Shown here in pieces: positions 42,972 to 64,000 of a stretch of DNA of 64,000 nucleotides. The notes beneath the pieces were generated by a model. The model saw nothing but the letters and a program-made list of their open reading frames with translations, did no database searches and was not told the origin of the DNA. Source of the stretch: an archaeon. Its GTDB lineage: Archaea > Undinarchaeota > CAZHTU01 > JBDRCC01. A program made the translations under genes and the position numbers. Positions within the stretch are counted from its first letter, which is position 1; the number at the start of each line of letters is the position of its first letter. The DNA is taken from the NCBI GenBank assembly GCA_043822065.1, contig JBDRCC010000001.1, positions 1-64,000 on the forward strand. Reading direction: 5' to 3'.

Positions 42972-43107
42972 TTAGTATACTAAACATATCACACGTTTTT
43001 TTATAGTAATACATCCTAAATAAACGCTACACTCTAAAAAAATAGATATTTTGTATACTATCGATATATGAAAAAATATATAAATTAGTATACTAAATTG
43101 TATACAA
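42972..43107. promoter_or_regulatory. Repeated GTATAC-centred palindromes upstream of the Fic gene
   Basis: TTAGTATACTAA at 42972-42983 and 43085-43096; TTGTATACTA at 43051-43060; TTGTATACAA at 43098-43107. Confidence 0.55.
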
Positions 43108-43132
43108 AACAATTAATCTTATTAAAAAGACG

Positions 43133-44185
43133 ATGAGACACATAGTTAAGAAAAATATTAGCGGAAACGAGTATTATTATTTTCAACTCAAGCTAGCGTC
43201 GATAGACCCAAAAAAGGAGCCGTATCTGTACAGCAAGTACATTGGCGAGTATTTGCCGTCAGAGTCTGTTCTAAAAAACTTTTTAATGAAGCGGGCGGAA
43301 GATTTGGCGATAATTACTGCGAGTAACCTTGGTAAGGGCATACGTACATATTTCAGAAATGGACCGGATATTAAAGAAGTAGAAAGGGATAGATGGTGGT
43401 TTTATTTTATTAACAATTACGATCTTTTTGAGGATCAAAATTCTACGTATCAGTCATTATTTGCCATACTATTTACGCTCCATACAAATGTAATAGAGGG
43501 CTCCAAAATGAGACAAGACGATATTATCGCCATGACTAGTGACTCCCGGAAGAAAGTAGTCACCTTCGAAGAGAAAGAGGTCACAAATACCCTGGATGCA
43601 CTCAAGTTTTCAGTTTCTAATGAAATGAAGTGGAATGTATCTTCAATAAAAAAACTTCATAGTAAGATATTGCCGGATGACCCCTTGGCCGGAAAATTTA
43701 GGATACGGGAGGTGGAGGTTGGTGATGCGACGCGAACGCGACTGTACAATACCGTGGAACCGCAAAAAATTAGAAAAGAACTTAGAGAGTTACTTTACTG
43801 GTTCAACAGGGAACATAACAAGGTATATCCTCCTCAACTAGCTCTTGAATTCCATTGGAGATTTGAGAGAATCCACCCATTTCAAGATGGAAATGGGCGA
43901 GTAGGGAGATTACTGCTAAATAGAATACTAATTGAGCACCACTTCATGCCAGTGATTTTCTTTTCGGAAAACGTTAGACAGTATTACGATGCAATAGCGC
44001 AAGCTAGAAACGGTAATTCTAGCAAGTTAGCTACGTTTTTCCTTAGGCAAAATAAAAAAACAAAGGAAGCCATGGAGCGTTTTAAAAGGGAAGGTATTGT
44101 CTCAGGACGGCGCTCTAGGATAGGTAGATGGACGATTAAAAGAGGAAAAACACCGAAAGAGTACGACGTAGAGGCCGAGGAATAA
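43133..44185 (+). CDS. Fic domain protein (AT-rich insert)
   Basis: Canonical HPFQDGNGRVGR motif and TNVIEG. Confidence 0.92.
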   Translation: MRHIVKKNISGNEYYYFQLKLASIDPKKEPYLYSKYIGEYLPSESVLKNFLMKRAEDLAIITASNLGKGIRTYFRNGPDIKEVERDRWWFYFINNYDLFEDQNSTYQSLFAILFTLHTNVIEGSKMRQDDIIAMTSDSRKKVVTFEEKEVTNTLDALKFSVSNEMKWNVSSIKKLHSKILPDDPLAGKFRIREVEVGDATRTRLYNTVEPQKIRKELRELLYWFNREHNKVYPPQLALEFHWRFERIHPFQDGNGRVGRLLLNRILIEHHFMPVIFFSENVRQYYDAIAQARNGNSSKLATFFLRQNKKTKEAMERFKREGIVSGRRSRIGRWTIKRGKTPKEYDVEAEE

Positions 44186-44213
44186 TCTAACTTTTTGACA
44201 TAAAGTTTAATGT

Positions 44214-47735: not shown

Positions 47736-49526
47736 ATGAAAATTCTGCTAATAGAGCCCAATGTACAAACATCAAATTACGTGTCCCAACGGGACTACAG
47801 GGACAATGGTGAGTTGGAGTCACCATGGGCAGGCTATCTAGCCGCAGTTATAGGTAGAAGGCATGATATAAAGTTCATAAATTGCTCGTTTCCCCCAACG
47901 GATAGTAGCGGATACTTTAGTATTAAAAGAAAGAAGAGCATTACCGATATTGAAATTTTGAACAACTTTAGAAAGTTCTCACCTTCGGTAGTCGCGTTTA
48001 CATCTTATGAAAAATCATTTGAGAGAGTAGTAAAATTGGCAAAAAAGTTCAAGAGGACAAACCCAGCGTGCAAGATAGTCTTAGGTGGGCATTACCCAAC
48101 GTTCACCTATACGCAATTGTTAGATGGGACGTGGTGCGATATCGTGGTTGTTGGTGAGGGATTCATTACCATAAAAGAATTAGTGTCATGTATAAACGCT
48201 GGAAAAAGCTTTGATGAAGTTAAAGGAATAGCCTATTTAGAGAATAATAGGATAGTTTATACTGGACGACGGGAGCCATTAAAAGATTTGGACGTTTTAC
48301 CGTTTCCAGATAGGCAGATATACCCAAAATGCAAGGAGCTTACGGATAGCAGCATACTAATTATATCGTCGATGGGCTGCCCGTGGGGAAAATGCACATT
48401 TTGCAGTATTGGGGCGTTTTATAATGGGCGACATTATGCAACACGATCGGCTAAAAACATTCTTGACGAGATTGAGTCAGTAGCTAGGGTAAGGGAAGTA
48501 AAATCAGTCCATTTTGTCACGGAAGGGGCACTTTATCAGCTAAAAAGCATTATAAATGAAAAAGTAAAACGAGGGCTAAATTTTAAATTTACATTAGAGG
48601 CAAGGATTGATGAGATCCTAAGATTTAAAGACAGTATAAGCTACGCAAAAAAAAATGGATTGGACGGGTTTCTTATAGGCATAGAAGTATTTTCCGACAG
48701 GATTTTAAAAATATTTAATAAAGGTTTGACCTGTGACAAAATAATATCTGCGCTCGACTACTTAGATGATTTGAGGATACCTAAATTGCTAGCATTTATT
48801 CCGTTTTCACCCTGGATAACCCGGGAAGAATTTTTATACAATCTTAGAATGATGCTAAATTGCGCAGTCTGGAAAGATCCAAGACTGTATTATATCCCGT
48901 TAAACGAAATCTTTCAAGAGGTTGAGTTTTACGCTGGAACTGAATTGCGAAAGCAGTATGGTAGGAGTTTAGATTATGAGAATGCGGACCTAAAAAAGGC
49001 GCTAGATAGGATGACTCATATACGAAGTATCAATAAACGCGTAGGGGATGCGGACACTGGCTCAGTAAGACTAAAATGGATCTCACTTGCGAGATATGTA
49101 GCTGGCAGTATTAGGGCGAAGAGTAAGTATCATGGTAAGGGGATACCTGGGATCGGCCTAAATGCACAATACATAACAATAAACAAAGAAGACACGCCTT
49201 GCTTAATAAACAAAGATAGGACAATATATCGCCTTAATGGAAAGGAGTTGCGCGCAATGAGGGAATTAAAGCAAAAATCGCCTAATTTGTATGAAGAGAT
49301 AGGGATGGTGATACTGCCCAGCAAGTCATATTTAGTAGATGTTATGCGCAAGAGGGCCGCGCCTATAACAAAAGAACAGCTTGTTTTTGCGCAGTATTCT
49401 CTAATGGGGTTGACTGAAGGGGAGATACGCAAGCAATTCGAGTATGAAAAACTGAGGTACGCCCCGGGCAACATAAAAAGGTATTTAAATATAAAGAGAG
49501 ATAGTTTGTATCGGAGGGAGGTATAA
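47736..49526 (+). CDS. B12-binding radical SAM enzyme with C-terminal extension
   Basis: IVLGGHYPT, VVGEG, CPWGKCTFC (CX4CX2C); extra ~150 aa C-terminal region. Confidence 0.88.
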   Translation: MKILLIEPNVQTSNYVSQRDYRDNGELESPWAGYLAAVIGRRHDIKFINCSFPPTDSSGYFSIKRKKSITDIEILNNFRKFSPSVVAFTSYEKSFERVVKLAKKFKRTNPACKIVLGGHYPTFTYTQLLDGTWCDIVVVGEGFITIKELVSCINAGKSFDEVKGIAYLENNRIVYTGRREPLKDLDVLPFPDRQIYPKCKELTDSSILIISSMGCPWGKCTFCSIGAFYNGRHYATRSAKNILDEIESVARVREVKSVHFVTEGALYQLKSIINEKVKRGLNFKFTLEARIDEILRFKDSISYAKKNGLDGFLIGIEVFSDRILKIFNKGLTCDKIISALDYLDDLRIPKLLAFIPFSPWITREEFLYNLRMMLNCAVWKDPRLYYIPLNEIFQEVEFYAGTELRKQYGRSLDYENADLKKALDRMTHIRSINKRVGDADTGSVRLKWISLARYVAGSIRAKSKYHGKGIPGIGLNAQYITINKEDTPCLINKDRTIYRLNGKELRAMRELKQKSPNLYEEIGMVILPSKSYLVDVMRKRAAPITKEQLVFAQYSLMGLTEGEIRKQFEYEKLRYAPGNIKRYLNIKRDSLYRREV

Positions 49527-49527
49527 A

Positions 49528-49710
49528 ATGCCAGAAATTAAAAAACTTAATCCGCCAACAGTTGACAAAATAGTGACTAACATGGGGAAAGTGAATTTAG
49601 CTCCAGAGTCAATAACGGCTATTCGTGGGGTTATAAAGGAACAGAAAGATGGCGCCGACACAAATATTGTTGACTGCAAAGGCAACCCGAACATGCTGGG
49701 TCAGAAATAG
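49528..49710 (+). CDS. Small peptide A, candidate RiPP precursor (60 aa)
   Basis: Strong GGAGGT RBS, starts 1 nt after the rSAM stop; shares a motif with peptide B. Confidence 0.7.
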   Translation: MPEIKKLNPPTVDKIVTNMGKVNLAPESITAIRGVIKEQKDGADTNIVDCKGNPNMLGQK

Positions 49711-60089: not shown

Positions 60090-60992
60090 ATGTTTGAGGT
60101 ATTCTTTCTCGGCACCGGGGCTGCAATCCCATCGAAGGACAGGGGGCACACGACCATCGCTGTCAGGCGGAACGGCGAGATAACCCTCCTTGACTGCGGC
60201 GAGGGCGCACAGCGCGAGATGATAAAAAACGGCCTGAGCATCATGAAGGTCAGGCGCATACTCATAACCCACCTGCACGCGGACCATGCCGCCGGGCTTT
60301 TTTCCCTCCCGCAGAGCCTTTACCTGCTGAACAGGCGGGAGCCGCTCGACATCTACGGGCCGAAGGGCATAAAGTCGATGGGAACTGCATTCGAGAAGTT
60401 CTTCTTCTTTGAGCCGGACTATGCGATAAGGTACCACGAGCTGCCGGAGGAAGAGGCGCTTGTCTATTCCGACAGCGAGATTGAAATCAGGTCGGTCGGC
60501 GTCGAGCACAGCCTCCCGACGGTTGCATATTCCATAAGGGAGAAAGACAGGCTGCACCTGGACGCCAAGAAGGCGAACGGGCTTGGGGTGAAGCCTGGGC
60601 CGCTGAGGAAAAATCTGACGGACGGGAAGGACATAGTGGTCAACGGGAAAAAGGTAAGGTCGAAGGACGTGACCAAGCTTGAGAAGGGGCTGAAGATTTC
60701 GTATTCCGGGGACACCGCGCCCTGCCAGTCATTCAAGAAGCTTGCAAGGGATTCGGACCTGCTTATCCACGAGGCGACTTTCAGGGCGGAGAAGGAGGCA
60801 GAGTCCAAGGAGTACGGGCATTCGACTTCGGTCGGCGCGGCAAAGGTCGCGAAGGAGACGAATTCGAAAAAGCTTGCCCTTGTGCACATCAGCCCCAGGT
60901 ACGAGGAGCCCAAAGAGCTGGAGAAAGAGGCGAAAGCGGTGTTCAGGAACACGGTTGCCTCCAAAGACGGCATGAAGCTTGTGCTAAAATGA
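60090..60992 (+). CDS. rnz: Ribonuclease Z
   Basis: FLGTG, DCGEG, THLHADH, exosite GVKPGP, SGDT, HEAT, GHST, HISPRY. Confidence 0.96.
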   Translation: MFEVFFLGTGAAIPSKDRGHTTIAVRRNGEITLLDCGEGAQREMIKNGLSIMKVRRILITHLHADHAAGLFSLPQSLYLLNRREPLDIYGPKGIKSMGTAFEKFFFFEPDYAIRYHELPEEEALVYSDSEIEIRSVGVEHSLPTVAYSIREKDRLHLDAKKANGLGVKPGPLRKNLTDGKDIVVNGKKVRSKDVTKLEKGLKISYSGDTAPCQSFKKLARDSDLLIHEATFRAEKEAESKEYGHSTSVGAAKVAKETNSKKLALVHISPRYEEPKELEKEAKAVFRNTVASKDGMKLVLK

Positions 60993-61015
60993 AGCCGGAG
61001 CTTGAGGAAGAGTGA
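60989..61015 (+). pseudogene. Probable remnant of the original tyw1 5' end (MKPELEEE*)
   Basis: ATGA overlap with the rnz stop, host-like codons, ends where AT-rich sequence begins; ELEEE resembles ELQEA of the present Tyw1 N-terminus. Confidence 0.45.
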
Positions 61016-61093
61016 GTTTTCCTAAAGTATTACTGGCAATCTACTATCTCGAGACGTGTATAACTCATGAAACAAAAGAGTTATTAAAAGCTT

Positions 61094-62479
61094 ATGAGAT
61101 ATCCCATTCAGTTCGTTGCAAAAATATGTTACGATAAGAGGTCGCACTACTGCGTTGTTATGCCAAAGAAATTATGTGTAGACAACTCTCTGCACTCCGG
61201 TGACATTCTTAAGCTGAGAATCGGTGAAAAGACTATATTTGTAAAGTTAAAAAGACGGTGCAAATCACTTACATTTACTATTAGCGCTAAGATAGGTAGA
61301 ATGTTTGATACAAAGGAAAATGTTACAATTATGGAAAAGTTGGAACTTAGAAAACCTGATAGTGAGGATATTGTTTTTGAAGGGGGTAATGTAGACCTTT
61401 ATAGGTCACTGCCAATATACTCCACTAGAGCTAAATTAGAATGGAATTACTGTTTATTGGACGATTCTCTACTACTATGCATAGAACCTAAACATGTACG
61501 CGGAACGGAATTTAAATACATAATAGTTCCTCAGTACCTTGATGTCGAAAAGCTAGGTTTGATGTGTGGGTTGATCTTTTCTGATGGTTTCAAAAAATTT
61601 GGCTTTGAGGATTTCTATGGTGAAAAATGTAAGACTACTACTACGTTTCAATTCACCAATGGAGATCCTTGTGTAATAAAATTATTTACGACATTAACGA
61701 GAGATTTACTCGAGATAGAACCATCTGAGTACAACGGAAATTTGTCATTTCCGCAGAAACTTTCTGAAGAGAAGACAGATAAAATTAGAAGATTCTGGGA
61801 AGATTCTTATGGTGTTAGGATTAAGTTAATATCTTTTAGAGATACTAAGAATAATAAGTGTCCGTGGGGGATAGCTACTATTAGGATACATAAAATGGTA
61901 TTGGCAGAATTCGTCGTGAGTCTGCTCAGAAAATTGTTGAAGTGGACACTCTGCTCTCAAGACAAATTGGCGTACATTTTTAAGAAAGAGTTTATCAGAG
62001 GCGCATTAATAGGTGATGGCTCACCGATACTCGACAAAGGTGTATTGAGACGGTATATGATAAGTATCGAAACTAAAAAAGAGGGCGAACTTTACGTAGA
62101 ACTGCTGAATTCTCTTGGAATAGAATCTCGGCTGTTATGGACGAAAGATGAGAAGGTAGCACCATATTTGAGGAAGGTTGATCTGCGAGGAGAATATAAA
62201 TTCCTAGAAAAAATAGTTTATGCCTTTCCGCTTGGCATATTTATTAACGGCGACTTTTTAGGGTCTTTAGAGAAAGAACTAAAAGCGCTTCATGGATTGT
62301 TTCGACATTCTAAGTGCCATGTTAAAGATCACAAAAAGTTAATAGACCTTGCTGAGAAGATAGATGTGAGGTTTAAAGCTGATTTATATAAACTTAAAGA
62401 AGCTGGTATTCAACTCCCAAAAGTTTATGAGGAGTACTGCCTAAATAGAATACCATTGCCTATCAAAAGTAGAAAATAA
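61094..62479 (+). mobile_element. Free-standing double-motif LAGLIDADG homing endonuclease with AbrB-like N-terminus
   Basis: LMCGLIFSDG and FIRGALIGDG motifs, FQFTNGD; AT-rich; no intein or intron features seen. Confidence 0.75.
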
Positions 62480-62482
62480 GAG

Positions 62483-63406
62483 ATGTATAAAAGTTTTGCT
62501 GGAGAGTTACAAGAAGCATTGAAAAAGCAACACTATGGTATATTCGGTAAACATTCTGCCGTAAAAGTTTGCGAATGGACGAAAAAAAGTTTGACGGAGA
62601 ATAATGTATGTTATAAAGAATCCTTCTATAAAATAAAGAGCCACCAGTGCATGGAGATGACTCCTGCCGCCGGCTTCTGCAACTTCAGGTGCACGTACTG
62701 CTGGAGGAAGCACGAGCTGAACCAAGGTGCAGATATGGAGGGGATTAAGATAGACGAGCCGGCTGGCATTATTGACGGCCTTGTCCAGGAGCGGAAAAAG
62801 CTGCTTATCGGGTTCAAGGGGAATGATAAGGTTGACCAAAAAAAGCTGCAGGAGGCGATGAGCCCGAAGCACGCCGCGATTTCGCTGACGGGGGAGCCTA
62901 CGCTTTACCCGAAGATTGGGGAGATGATTGATGAGTTCCATAAGAGGAAGATGACGACGTATTTGGTTACGAACTGCTCGCGGCCGGATGTGCTTGAAAA
63001 AATACCGGAGCCGACCCAGCTGTACCTGAGCGTGACATCGCCGACTGAGGAGGCATTCAAGCGGATTAATGTTCCGCTGGAACGGGGCGCCTGGAGTAAG
63101 GTGCAAAAGACGCTGGAGCTTGTGCCGAGCTTCTCATGCCCGACCGTGATGCGGCTGACCATGATTGCAGGGCACAACATGGGCTTGGGCAGGGAGTTCG
63201 CGAAGGTCGTCAGCAGGGCTCAGCCGAGGTATGTGGAGGTAAAAAGCTTTATGCTGATTGGCGGGGCGAGGCACAGGAACCTGACCCTGGACAACATGCC
63301 GAAGCATGAGGAGCTCAGGGAATTCTCAAGGAAGCTTGCGGAAGAGACATCATATAGTATTAAGGACGAAAAGGCAGACTCGAGAGTAGTGCTACTTAGC
63401 AAGTGA
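62483..63406 (+). CDS. taw1: 4-demethylwyosine synthase Tyw1/Taw1
   Basis: HSAVKVCEW, CYK..FY.IKSHQC, CNFRCTYCWR, SLTGEPTLY, SRVVLL. Confidence 0.95.
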   Translation: MYKSFAGELQEALKKQHYGIFGKHSAVKVCEWTKKSLTENNVCYKESFYKIKSHQCMEMTPAAGFCNFRCTYCWRKHELNQGADMEGIKIDEPAGIIDGLVQERKKLLIGFKGNDKVDQKKLQEAMSPKHAAISLTGEPTLYPKIGEMIDEFHKRKMTTYLVTNCSRPDVLEKIPEPTQLYLSVTSPTEEAFKRINVPLERGAWSKVQKTLELVPSFSCPTVMRLTMIAGHNMGLGREFAKVVSRAQPRYVEVKSFMLIGGARHRNLTLDNMPKHEELREFSRKLAEETSYSIKDEKADSRVVLLSK

Positions 63407-63429
63407 GCAGCTGGGGCTGCCAGATTTTT

Positions 63430-63546
63430 TGGTGTATGTTTGGTGTAGGTTGGTGTATGTTCACCTACACCAGCATTTTACCTACACCAACCTATTTTTC
63501 AGGATATGGGGGTGTAGTTTGTGTAGTTAGTGCAGTTAGTGTAGTT
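63430..63546. repeat. Short direct and inverted GTGTAG-type repeats
   Basis: TGGTGTA(T/G)GT x3, ACCTACACCA x2 (reverse complement), GTG(T/C)AGTT x4 at 9 nt spacing. Confidence 0.7.
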
Positions 63547-64000
63547 ATGCGCCTTTAAGCCCCTATAGTGCTATAGTGCAGTAGCGATTTCTTGCTGCGG
63601 CACGCCAGCCAAACGCCCGGTCCGGGCGCCATTTGCCGGCTTGGCTGCGCAGGTGCGGAAACGCCTATCATGCGGGCGCAGCCCGCATGAACGTCCCCCC
63701 CGATAATATGGGGAGCTTTGCTCCCCTAGATTTGATTGTTAGGCTCGCGGCGCGCGCGGCCAGGCGGGCGCTGGCGCTTATGAAAAACCTGGGAATTTGG
63801 CGCCCGAAGCGCGCTTTTGGAAGCCGGGCGGAAGGTGCAAATACAATTTTACGTAAATATATTTACGGAAGAAAATTAACAACGAAATAATTAGGTGGAT
63901 TTTGTCAGATCGATGTCGCCTCTTCATCGCCCGAAGATGCAGCAGGCATGATGGGCATCAGTGGGTGTACACGTCGTCATCCAAAACCCATTATGTTTTG

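Follow-up and report, generated by a model that had tools for sequence, protein, structure and literature searches.

The last 4 kb of a 64,000-nucleotide stretch of an Undinarchaeota archaeon (assembly GCA_043822065.1, contig JBDRCC010000001.1, positions 1-64,000; this whole stretch is called the window, and coordinates are window positions) carries three genes on the plus strand: rnz, which encodes ribonuclease Z, an open reading frame (ORF) of 461 codons, and tyw1, which encodes the 4-demethylwyosine synthase TYW1/Taw1. The middle ORF is probably a LAGLIDADG-type homing endonuclease gene that arrived together with a replacement copy of the first 52 codons of tyw1, and a short remnant of the original tyw1 5' end lies upstream of it. 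The locus is compared here with five homologous loci and with the rest of its own genome, which was laid out whole (1.03 Mb in 22 contigs, 82% complete). The features of the locus are the following.

60090-60992, plus strand: rnz, the upstream host gene (TIGR02651, E 4.7e-97; G+C content at third codon positions, GC3, 0.77)
60989-61015, plus strand: stub MKPELEEE with its stop codon, codons 1-8 of what appears to be the displaced original 5' copy of tyw1 (GC3 0.67, host-like)
61016-62638, no strand assigned: low-GC tract, the probable imported cassette of endonuclease gene and replacement tyw1 codons 1-52 (GC 0.31-0.42, flanks 0.53-0.61, both edges sharp)
61025-61093, plus strand: pseudogenised N-terminal remnant of the endonuclease, in frame with the ORF and with two TAA codons inside (the family profile matches from 61025, at profile position 32)
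61094-62479, plus strand: LAGLIDADG-type endonuclease ORF of 461 codons, so named by its motifs and fold (GC 0.36, GC3 0.34)
61550-61603, plus strand: first LAGLIDADG-like motif KLGLMCGLIFSDGFKKFG, with acidic residue D164 at the end of model helix 151-165
61982-62038, plus strand: second LAGLIDADG-like motif ..FIRGALIGDGSPILDK, with acidic residue D308 at the end of model helix 291-308
62483-63406, plus strand: tyw1 (TIGR03972, E 1e-116, residues 10-306)
62483-62638, plus strand: tyw1 codons 1-52 including C30 and C43, the probable replacement copy from the cassette (GC3 0.31; TIGR03972 covers it from residue 10)
62624-62650, plus strand: junction and presumed former target motif, FYKIK/SHQC, the slash marking the junction (canonical FYGIxSHRC; GC3 break at 62638/62639)
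62639-63406, plus strand: host-derived remainder of tyw1, codons 53-307, with the third auxiliary-cluster cysteine, the CxxxCxxC motif and the wyosine domain (GC3 0.73; Pfam Radical_SAM and Wyosine_form; match to 2yx0 at 2.5e-91)

The G+C content falls from about 57% to about 35% across 61016-62638. In windows of 150 nucleotides (nt), it is 0.53-0.61 on either side and 0.31-0.42 from about 61000 to 62640. Within tyw1 the switch in GC3 lies between AAG (62636-62638) and AGC (62639-62641), and a change-point scan of 790 ORFs splits the gene at codon 51 (z 6.1). When the GC3 of the first 52 codons is subtracted from that of the remaining codons, tyw1 has the largest difference (0.43; mean 0.05, standard deviation 0.096) among the 645 non-overlapping ORFs of at least 200 amino acids in the whole genome. 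The break in tyw1 is real and is not a chance fluctuation. In other ORFs with early change-points, the protein family match begins past the low-GC part (at residue 26 in RNase HII, 36 in AsnC and 47 in a phosphoribosyltransferase), and these look like mis-called starts. A mis-called start was rejected as the source of the low-GC 5' segment of tyw1, where the TYW1 model covers residues 10-52 and these residues align to solved structures. An earlier reading of this DNA made without database searches (the sequence-only reading) had described an ATGA overlap at the end of rnz that opens MKPELEEE in host-like codons, an AT-rich composition through the ORF and about the first 52 codons of tyw1, and a return to G/C-ending codons at the SHQC motif near 62640. 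All three are borne out by the composition given above: the TGA of rnz overlaps the ATG at 60989, the stub reads ATG AAG CCG GAG CTT GAG GAA GAG TGA, and GC3 stays low through the ORF and tyw1 codons 1-52 until the break inside the gene.

The product of tyw1 belongs to the TYW1/Taw1 family, with a TIGR03972 score of 389 bits against a cut-off of 318, and the CxxxCxxC motif of radical S-adenosylmethionine (SAM) enzymes is present as C66, C70 and C73. Three further cysteines, C30, C43 and C56, align with C26, C39 and C52 of MJ0257; from the structural literature we take these to be the auxiliary-cluster ligands. The replaced segment bears C30 and C43, and C56 lies four codons past the junction.

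The 461-codon ORF is predicted to be a monomeric two-motif LAGLIDADG enzyme, judged by motifs and fold. Its two LAGLIDADG-like helices each end in a conserved acidic residue followed by glycine. In the first motif (..GLIFSD164G..), G159, L160, S163, D164, G165, K167, K168, F169 and G170 are invariant in all six family members, and in the second (..ALIGD308GSP..), F300, G303 and I306 through K315 are invariant in the same six, giving the consensus motifs GL..SDG.KKFG and F..G..IGDGSPILDK in the six-row alignment. D164 and D308 presumably occupy the catalytic position of the consensus motif, an assignment that follows the motif register. An AlphaFold model built from this alignment (predicted local distance difference test score 83.5, predicted template modeling (TM) score 0.86), together with its Foldseek matches, suggests the alpha-beta-beta-alpha-beta-beta-alpha fold twice per chain. 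The best Foldseek matches in the PDB are 7qsu (the TliVMA intein endonuclease), 1lws (PI-SceI) and many I-DmoI entries, with probabilities of 0.99-1.00; the I-DmoI entries have target-normalised TM-scores of 0.62-0.64 at probability 1.0, and WhiA ranks after them. The model is beta-rich over about its first 130 residues and the homologs carry about 60 further N-terminal residues, so that the extra N-terminal beta-rich region of the family spans about 130-190 residues. The family is very small, a description based on two counts: five homologs of the ORF (34-37% identity) in a collection of 5.8 billion proteins, and only 6 sequences at E<1e-30 in an exhaustive profile search of 1.84 billion representative proteins (22 at E<1e-10 and 73 at E<1e-3). 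Among viral contigs, 422 pattern matches contained no relatives.

Five homologous loci were obtained from scans of genome and metagenome contigs. One (L032) is in a metagenome-assembled genome recorded as Candidatus Aenigmatarchaeota (genome G041) and the others (L033-L036) are on metagenome contigs. In all five, a complete tyw1 comes immediately after the endonuclease gene. The stop of one gene and the start of the other overlap by 11, 11, 8 and 4 nt in L033-L036, lie a few nt apart in L032, and are separated by 3 nt in the window. The homologous endonuclease ORFs are all intact (497-516 codons). A comparison of the L033 and L034 endonuclease genes gives a ratio of nonsynonymous to synonymous substitutions (dN/dS) of about 0.25 at a synonymous divergence of ~1, which is near saturation; the ratio shows that the endonuclease protein is under selection, whatever its purpose. 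Four of the five loci (L032, L033, L034 and L036) also contain a broken second tyw1 N-terminus upstream of the endonuclease gene. The architecture is thus found in six independent assemblies, the window included. The remnants of the old copy and the motifs at the corresponding junction in tyw1 are the following.

Window: remnant MKPELEEE; junction motif FYKIKSHQC
L032: remnant upstream of the endonuclease gene MLNEDIARLKNAGYKIIGNHSAVKLCSWCKK; junction motif FYKDMGIESHRC
L033: remnant upstream of the endonuclease gene ..FRKILKKQHYALVGNHSAVQICRWTK; junction motif FYGINSWRC
L034: remnant upstream of the endonuclease gene MDKKLIESLKKQHYGIAGNHSAV; junction motif FYGIHSYSC
L035: junction motif FYGLATHRC
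L036: remnant upstream of the endonuclease gene MLPQNIKKLLQKQHYEIV; junction motif FYGISTLGC

The recognisable part of the old copy is 8 codons long in the window and 18-32 codons elsewhere, and in the window, L032, L033, L034 and L036 it is truncated or contains stops and frameshifts, so that the native end is displaced and non-functional. Within each locus the old and new 5' copies of tyw1 are strongly divergent. A fresh tandem duplication was therefore rejected as the origin of the second copy: the two copies are too different at each locus for the arrangement to be a recent local event.

A nucleotide alignment of the five homologous loci shows that all have a conserved stretch immediately ahead of the endonuclease ATG, ..TTTATAAATA..AGTTCTATGGTATTATATG. 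It includes TTC TAT GGT ATT, which translates as FYGI, in four of the five (L033 has one mismatch), at a constant offset; the endonuclease gene begins 2 nt past this block, and TAT A(A/T)(A/T) stands 7-9 nt upstream of it. We read the whole as a decayed form of ..YKxxFYGI, the motif that in tyw1 comes before SHRC, with 1-3 extra bases in the spacing. Since the block reads FYGI, the displaced copy would once have reached codon ~51. The composition of L032, where the host genes have a GC3 of 0.54-0.57, is divided as follows.

L032, old copy: GC3 0.71
L032, endonuclease gene: GC3 0.22
L032, tyw1 codons 1 to ~55: GC3 0.25-0.45
L032, tyw1 from SHRC onward: GC3 0.75-0.83

An apparent gap and frame change in tyw1 at about 4015-4125 of L032 is a masked stretch of N and not biology. 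L032 and the window lie in hosts of different composition and have the same right-hand edge, between FYGIx and SHRC. Because GC3 breaks at the position marked by the FYGI block, both in L032 and in the window, the insertion point is placed at tyw1 codon 52/53, just before the third auxiliary-cluster cysteine. The polarity follows from the composition of the two copies: the one upstream, which is host-like, is host DNA, and the low-GC 52 codons downstream arrived with the endonuclease gene. Only about the first 32 codons of the L032 old copy are host-like and the part beside the endonuclease gene is AT-rich, which is the outcome expected of a left-hand crossover within the old copy.

The junction motif itself differs between Tyw1 proteins with and without the element. 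The loose pattern [FW][YF]G[IV].[STAC]H[RQK]C occurs in 111 of 118 other Tyw1 proteins that have an N-terminus (their genomic context is not known) and in none of the six element-bearing ones, all of which deviate from it. The Fisher p of 3.8e-7 for this contrast is overstated and serves as description, the rows being related and the groups set after inspection. Such deviance is expected if the enzyme recognises this site and the occupied alleles are immune variants.

These loci bear on the possibility that an ordinary free-standing endonuclease entered the spacer between rnz and tyw1, that a co-conversion tract reached into tyw1, and that MKPELEEE is a chance ORF. The position of the gene between rnz and tyw1 agrees with this, and co-conversion of flanking markers is described as usual for the phage seg and mob genes (PMC2790892). 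However, simple co-conversion exchanges a 5' end and makes no second copy, and it is contradicted by the duplicated 5' copies: remnants of 18-32 codons in four of five homologous loci and the FYGI block in all five. That GC3 breaks at one and the same motif in two unrelated hosts argues in the same direction, as do a stub that fits the Tyw1 N-termini of relatives and an ATGA coupling that has been kept. This explanation is very unlikely.

In relatives, rnz ends within 70 nt of tyw1 in 8 of 29 loci, including one in a genome of the same order (G001), and the endonuclease gene is absent from all 29. The Tyw1 proteins of the abutting relatives begin M-x-x-(S/E)-E-L-K... (for example MLPSEFKALL.., MNEELKKLF.. 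and MIPQNLRDLL..). MKPELEEE fits these N-termini, and the ATGA overlap with rnz also occurs in one relative (L011). The sequence-only reading had expected relatives with a contiguous rnz-tyw1 and a start like MKPELEEE, and these exist; a MYKSF start in relatives lacking the endonuclease, which would have spoken against it, was found in none of those in which rnz and tyw1 abut. It had also taken the stub for a leftover of the old tyw1 N-terminus, which is supported, MKPELEEE being what remains of an old copy of 52 codons. Its view that the carried copy keeps tyw1 functional agrees with the complete tyw1 and in-frame junction in the window and in all five homologous loci. Entry of the element at the start of tyw1 was not borne out: the FYGI block and the GC3 breaks point to codon 52/53 instead.

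Of 16 other genomes in the phylum of the window, none has a true member of the endonuclease family; in the phylum of G041, one of 371 does. More distant LAGLIDADG relatives are found in the latter phylum, where the family profile matches 27 of 371 genomes. Apart from G041's own locus (L038), none of the 29 fetched loci with distant relatives places such a gene next to tyw1. A tblastx self-comparison of these loci, and of the 12 loci with relatives of a second endonuclease (C22, below), gave no convincing flanking duplications, with weak matches in L048, L053, L055 and L106. In L048 (G337:C7:44660-48061), a two-motif LAGLIDADG ORF of 416 codons at 1153-2403 on the minus strand has an end that overlaps the start of a PHP-domain-like gene, a coupling as tight as that between tyw1 and its endonuclease gene; no stub was seen there, and the ORF list of that locus does not contain the cassette architecture.

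It is also conceivable that the arrangement is produced by splicing (a group I intron, an archaeal bulge-helix-bulge intron or an intein) or by an assembly chimera of low-GC and high-GC DNA. Two classical low-GC LAGLIDADG inteins do occur in the same genome, and metagenome bins can be chimeric. However, the endonuclease ORF stands apart from tyw1, ending in its own stop codon 3 nt ahead of the tyw1 ATG, and no intein domain was found in it. A search of 60500-63500 against Rfam gave no match at E up to 1 (it was not aimed specifically at bulge-helix-bulge motifs), and old copies with stops and deletions cannot be exons. The right junction is in frame within a conserved motif, and a chimera would have to recur in six independent assemblies. 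Both forms of this explanation are barely credible, and the absence of splicing supposed by the sequence-only reading stands.

We therefore read the low-GC tract as a homing-endonuclease cassette that needs no splicing, made up of a LAGLIDADG gene and tyw1 codons 1-52 and fused in frame to the host gene at codon 52/53, and we give this reading a probability of about 0.8. Confidence in the individual homing steps is lower. The enzyme would cut an element-free tyw1 at or near the junction FYGIx/SHRC, and repair would copy the endonuclease gene and codons 1-52 from an occupied allele, with homology arms formed by the displaced old copy (left) and by tyw1 from codon 53 onward (right). The carried copy would restore the gene at once, yielding a full-length hybrid Tyw1 from the cassette 5' copy and host codons 53-307, so that splicing would be unneeded. 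The altered motif would make the carried copy and its junction immune. Host codons 1-52 would be pushed upstream as a dead copy that decays by deletions of varying extent, which would leave remnants of 8, 18, 23, 27 and 32 codons. The end of the old copy, decayed and AT-rich (..YKxxFYGI turned into TTTATAAATA...TTCTATGGTATT), 14-30 nt before the ATG, may then serve as the TATA box of the endonuclease gene, a TATA-type promoter that would give a nearly leaderless transcript.

Several observations weigh against this reading. Anatomy, polarity, a common insertion point, an in-frame hybrid gene and intact two-motif proteins in relatives can be read from the loci themselves; the mechanism is one that we infer from that anatomy. 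The LAGLIDADG label given in the sequence-only reading holds by the two motifs and the fold and falls short in Pfam, where the match to LAGLIDADG_3 (PF14528) covers only residues 297-374 and, at 19.1 bits (E 1.5e-3), stays below the cut-off of 22.5. NCBIfam gives no match to the ORF. A family-profile search of PDB sequences found no LAGLIDADG entry, the sole match being an unrelated protein at E 0.32. Locus L035 has no clear old-copy remnant beyond the YK..FYGI block within its 152 nt of upstream sequence.

The ancestry of the two parts of Tyw1 is a further point on this side. The sequence-only reading had expected separate trees of tyw1 codons 1-52 and of the remainder to disagree, and the expected discordance is absent. 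In the tree of residues 53-307, the window protein groups with P0014 and P0015 (Shimodaira-Hasegawa-like approximate likelihood ratio test, SH-aLRT, 84) inside a five-row clade that includes P0013 and G001 (97), and in the tree of residues 1-52 it groups with the same two proteins (SH-aLRT 95). The two trees are congruent and the identity rankings agree. In an approximately unbiased test of the N-terminal part, an alternative grouping is not rejected (p 0.615), the 51-column tree having little power. GC3 says that the carried end is foreign (0.31 against 0.73 in the window, 0.25-0.45 against 0.75-0.83 in L032), whereas protein trees and identities place it in the host clade. The foreignness of the 5' segment rests on composition and architecture, and phylogeny adds nothing to it. 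Congruent trees are not taken as refutation because homology-dependent homing is expected to occur between relatives; the donor, if there was one, would be a close relative from the same small clade as the host. Neither a donor nor an element-free close relative was found, the nearest Tyw1 proteins being 53-57% identical (53% for the best match among 40 related genomes, and 57% over residues 56-307 in the 5.8-billion-protein collection).

The condition of the window's own endonuclease gene belongs with these points. About 31 N-terminal codons are gone and two TAA stops lie in the next ~23. Old-copy codons 9 to ~52 and the conserved block before the ATG are also missing, and the simplest reading is that one deletion of about 230 nt removed part of the old copy together with the start of the endonuclease gene. 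The ORF could restart at 61094 or at 61160, where a 439-amino-acid form in the protein collection begins. Since the deletion took about the first 31 codons of the endonuclease, the window's copy is probably decaying and no longer a fully functional mobile element. With a composition not adjusted to its host, the element looks like a recent acquisition from which the left arm and some of the enzyme are already gone.

WhiA is an example of a LAGLIDADG protein with a host role in DNA binding or regulation, and a similar fate can be imagined for this family: the cassette would have arisen as described, and the LAGLIDADG protein would now have a host function such as DNA binding or regulation, or none, and be inherited vertically with no homing. 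The truncation and stops in the window gene are consistent with this, as are the presence of WhiA among the fold matches to the model and the very small size of the family, with 6 representatives at E<1e-30 among 1.84 billion proteins. L033 and L034 are 65% identical in the endonuclease and 64% in Tyw1, and this equal divergence, a further point against active homing, may reflect vertical co-inheritance as well as transfer. The dN/dS of about 0.25 marks selection on the protein and not on cleavage as such. On the other hand, both acidic motif residues are invariant in six of six proteins, the unadjusted composition in two GC-richer hosts argues for recent arrival, the distribution is scattered (none of 16 and one of 371 genomes in the two phyla), and the target motif is altered in every occupied allele. 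A fossil or domesticated element is thus unlikely, though it deserves more weight than insertion into the spacer or splicing.

The nearest known counterpart of the proposed tyw1 cassette is found in fungal mitochondria, where mobile ORFs (mORFs) consist of an endonuclease ORF inserted together with a foreign C-terminal gene segment, with the native C-terminus left downstream; PMC3630166 gives such hybrids in Allomyces macrogynus atp6, Glomus sp. atp6, atp9, cox2 and nad3, Rhizopus atp9 and Mortierella cox2. The two systems share a LAGLIDADG ORF (mORFs also have GIY-YIG ORFs) that brings along a copy of one end of its target gene, a carried copy in frame with the host core, which in mORFs is expressed, a native end that is displaced and diverges or is unexpressed, and no splicing (PMC3630166). 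They differ in that the fungal elements replace the 3' (C-terminal) end, downstream of the core and in an organelle, whereas the tyw1 cassette replaces the 5' end in an archaeal chromosome of about 1 Mb. The tyw1 cassette must also bring a start codon and expression signals, and its targets are radical-SAM tRNA-modification genes. The inserted end in Glomus is phylogenetically foreign according to PMC3630166, whereas trees did not show this for the tyw1 5' segment. By analogy, the tyw1 cassette would work like an mORF outside those fungal lineages.

I-DmoI, PI-SceI and the TliVMA endonuclease resemble the tyw1 enzyme in having two LAGLIDADG motifs per chain and a fold to which the predicted one matches. 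Enzymes of this kind belong to rRNA introns or inteins that are spliced out, whereas the tyw1 endonuclease is a separate ORF, and its family is set apart by the extra N-terminal beta-rich region and by having no PDB sequence match. The elements of phage intronless homing are intergenic and carry no duplicated gene piece; their enzymes are GIY-YIG or HNH, and immunity comes from polymorphism in the neighbouring gene. The tyw1 element differs in being LAGLIDADG, in lying inside a gene, and in having a duplicated piece and a carried replacement segment. What it shares with the phage T4 genes SegF, SegG, MobE and their relatives is a free-standing endonuclease gene beside its presumed target gene, and it would likewise spread by double-strand-break repair with co-conversion of the flanks (PMC2790892, PMC2988022). 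The sequence-only reading had proposed phage intronless homing as the analogue, and this holds for the free-standing gene and co-conversion; for the duplicated gene piece, the closest system is the fungal mORF hybrid.

The change-point scan and a list of low-GC ORFs led to a second locus of similar form on contig C22 of the same genome. Two inteins were also found. These features are the following.

C22 2472-3734, minus strand: LAGLIDADG ORF of 420 codons (GC3 0.35; PF14528 at 23.7 bits, above threshold)
C22 1192-2469, minus strand: gene for an MtaB-type methylthiotransferase (TIGR01578, E 1e-138, residues 4-421)
C21 4029-7328, minus strand: DEAD/ResIII helicase gene with an intein at residues 61-631 that has a LAGLIDADG domain (GC3 0.44, extein 0.79)
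C19 35543-38326, plus strand: 927-codon ORF with an intein at residues 210-718 that has a LAGLIDADG domain (GC3 0.42, extein 0.70)

The C22 LAGLIDADG ORF stops 3 nt ahead of mtaB. Codons 1-184 of mtaB have a GC3 of 0.35 and the rest 0.74, the jump falling at EIRLTGQDTG, codon 184. Upstream of the endonuclease gene lies a host-like stub of 20 codons, MKICLETYGCTTNQVDSNII (GC3 0.65), which fits the MtaB N-termini of relatives, MKVYIETYGC.AN..DSE. The endonucleases of the two loci are unrelated by BLASTP (E 0.021). The mtaB locus (L078, 1192-3856) thus appears to be another cassette built like that in tyw1, around an unrelated LAGLIDADG gene. Relatives of the C22 enzyme occur in 36 of the 371 genomes from the phylum of G041. 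None of 12 fetched loci with such relatives adjoins mtaB, so the mtaB cassette rests on one locus. An 11-mer, ATTACTGGCAA, is common to both cassettes no more than 25 nt past the host-like stub (61038-61048 of the window, and L078); the chance of this is roughly 0.01, and the sharing may be either coincidence or a feature of the junction. Two other low-GC free-standing LAGLIDADG-like ORFs were noted in the genome: C7 3194-3988 (plus strand; PF14528 at 1.9e-8), beside which no replaced gene end was seen, and C21 9610-10908 (minus strand; PF14528 at 0.0084), which is divergent beside a TatD-like gene.

Full-text searches of open-access papers and preprints turned up none that link homing endonucleases with TYW1, Taw1, wyosine or MtaB, and none that describe mORF-like hybrids in archaea or other prokaryotes. 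To our knowledge, homing endonucleases have been thought to persist in essential genes only inside introns or inteins, the known exception being the fungal mitochondrial mORF that replaces a 3' end. The tyw1 locus and its five relatives would be the mirror image of the mORF in archaeal chromosomes, the 5' end being replaced and the native copy left to decay, with the element supplying the start codon and the rest of the first 52 codons, which include two of the three auxiliary-cluster cysteines. If this is true, the junction FYGIx/SHRC is a testable target for a new LAGLIDADG family with an unusual DNA-binding-like N-terminal region, mosaic composition within conserved genes of small archaeal genomes is explained, and there is a way for lineages to exchange short stretches of core genes. 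A broader proposal is that DPANN-type archaea hold an unrecognised class of splicing-free cassettes that carry a cleavage-immune 5' part with its start codon and use the native copy first as the left arm and then as a TATA-type promoter. At least two unrelated LAGLIDADG lineages would belong to this class within a single 1-Mb genome, one in each of two radical-SAM tRNA-modification genes (tyw1 and mtaB), with two inteins in that genome as well. This proposal is tentative, and we consider its chances slightly short of even. If it is true, gene-end replacement is a third general route into essential genes, beside introns and inteins, and produces hybrid genes between species.

Other features of the window were observed away from the cassette. 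Right after the tyw1 stop, at 63403-63560, the words GGTGTA and TACACC are repeated in direct and inverted orientation (GC 0.43). A low-GC island at 42975-44200, with a G+C content of 0.19-0.23 in 150-nt windows at about 42975-43200, sits between HMG-CoA reductase-like and DNA ligase-like genes, named from their translations alone, and contains an ORF of 350 codons (43133-44185) whose translation reads as having a Fic-type HPFxDGNGR motif. At 47736-55418, a low-GC region of about 8 kb (GC 0.38-0.43) holds several large ORFs on both strands; by translation these include radical-SAM-like enzymes, two of them B12-binding-domain-like and one with a Cys-rich C-terminal region, and there is also an ORF of 547 codons. 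This region may be an acquired gene cluster.

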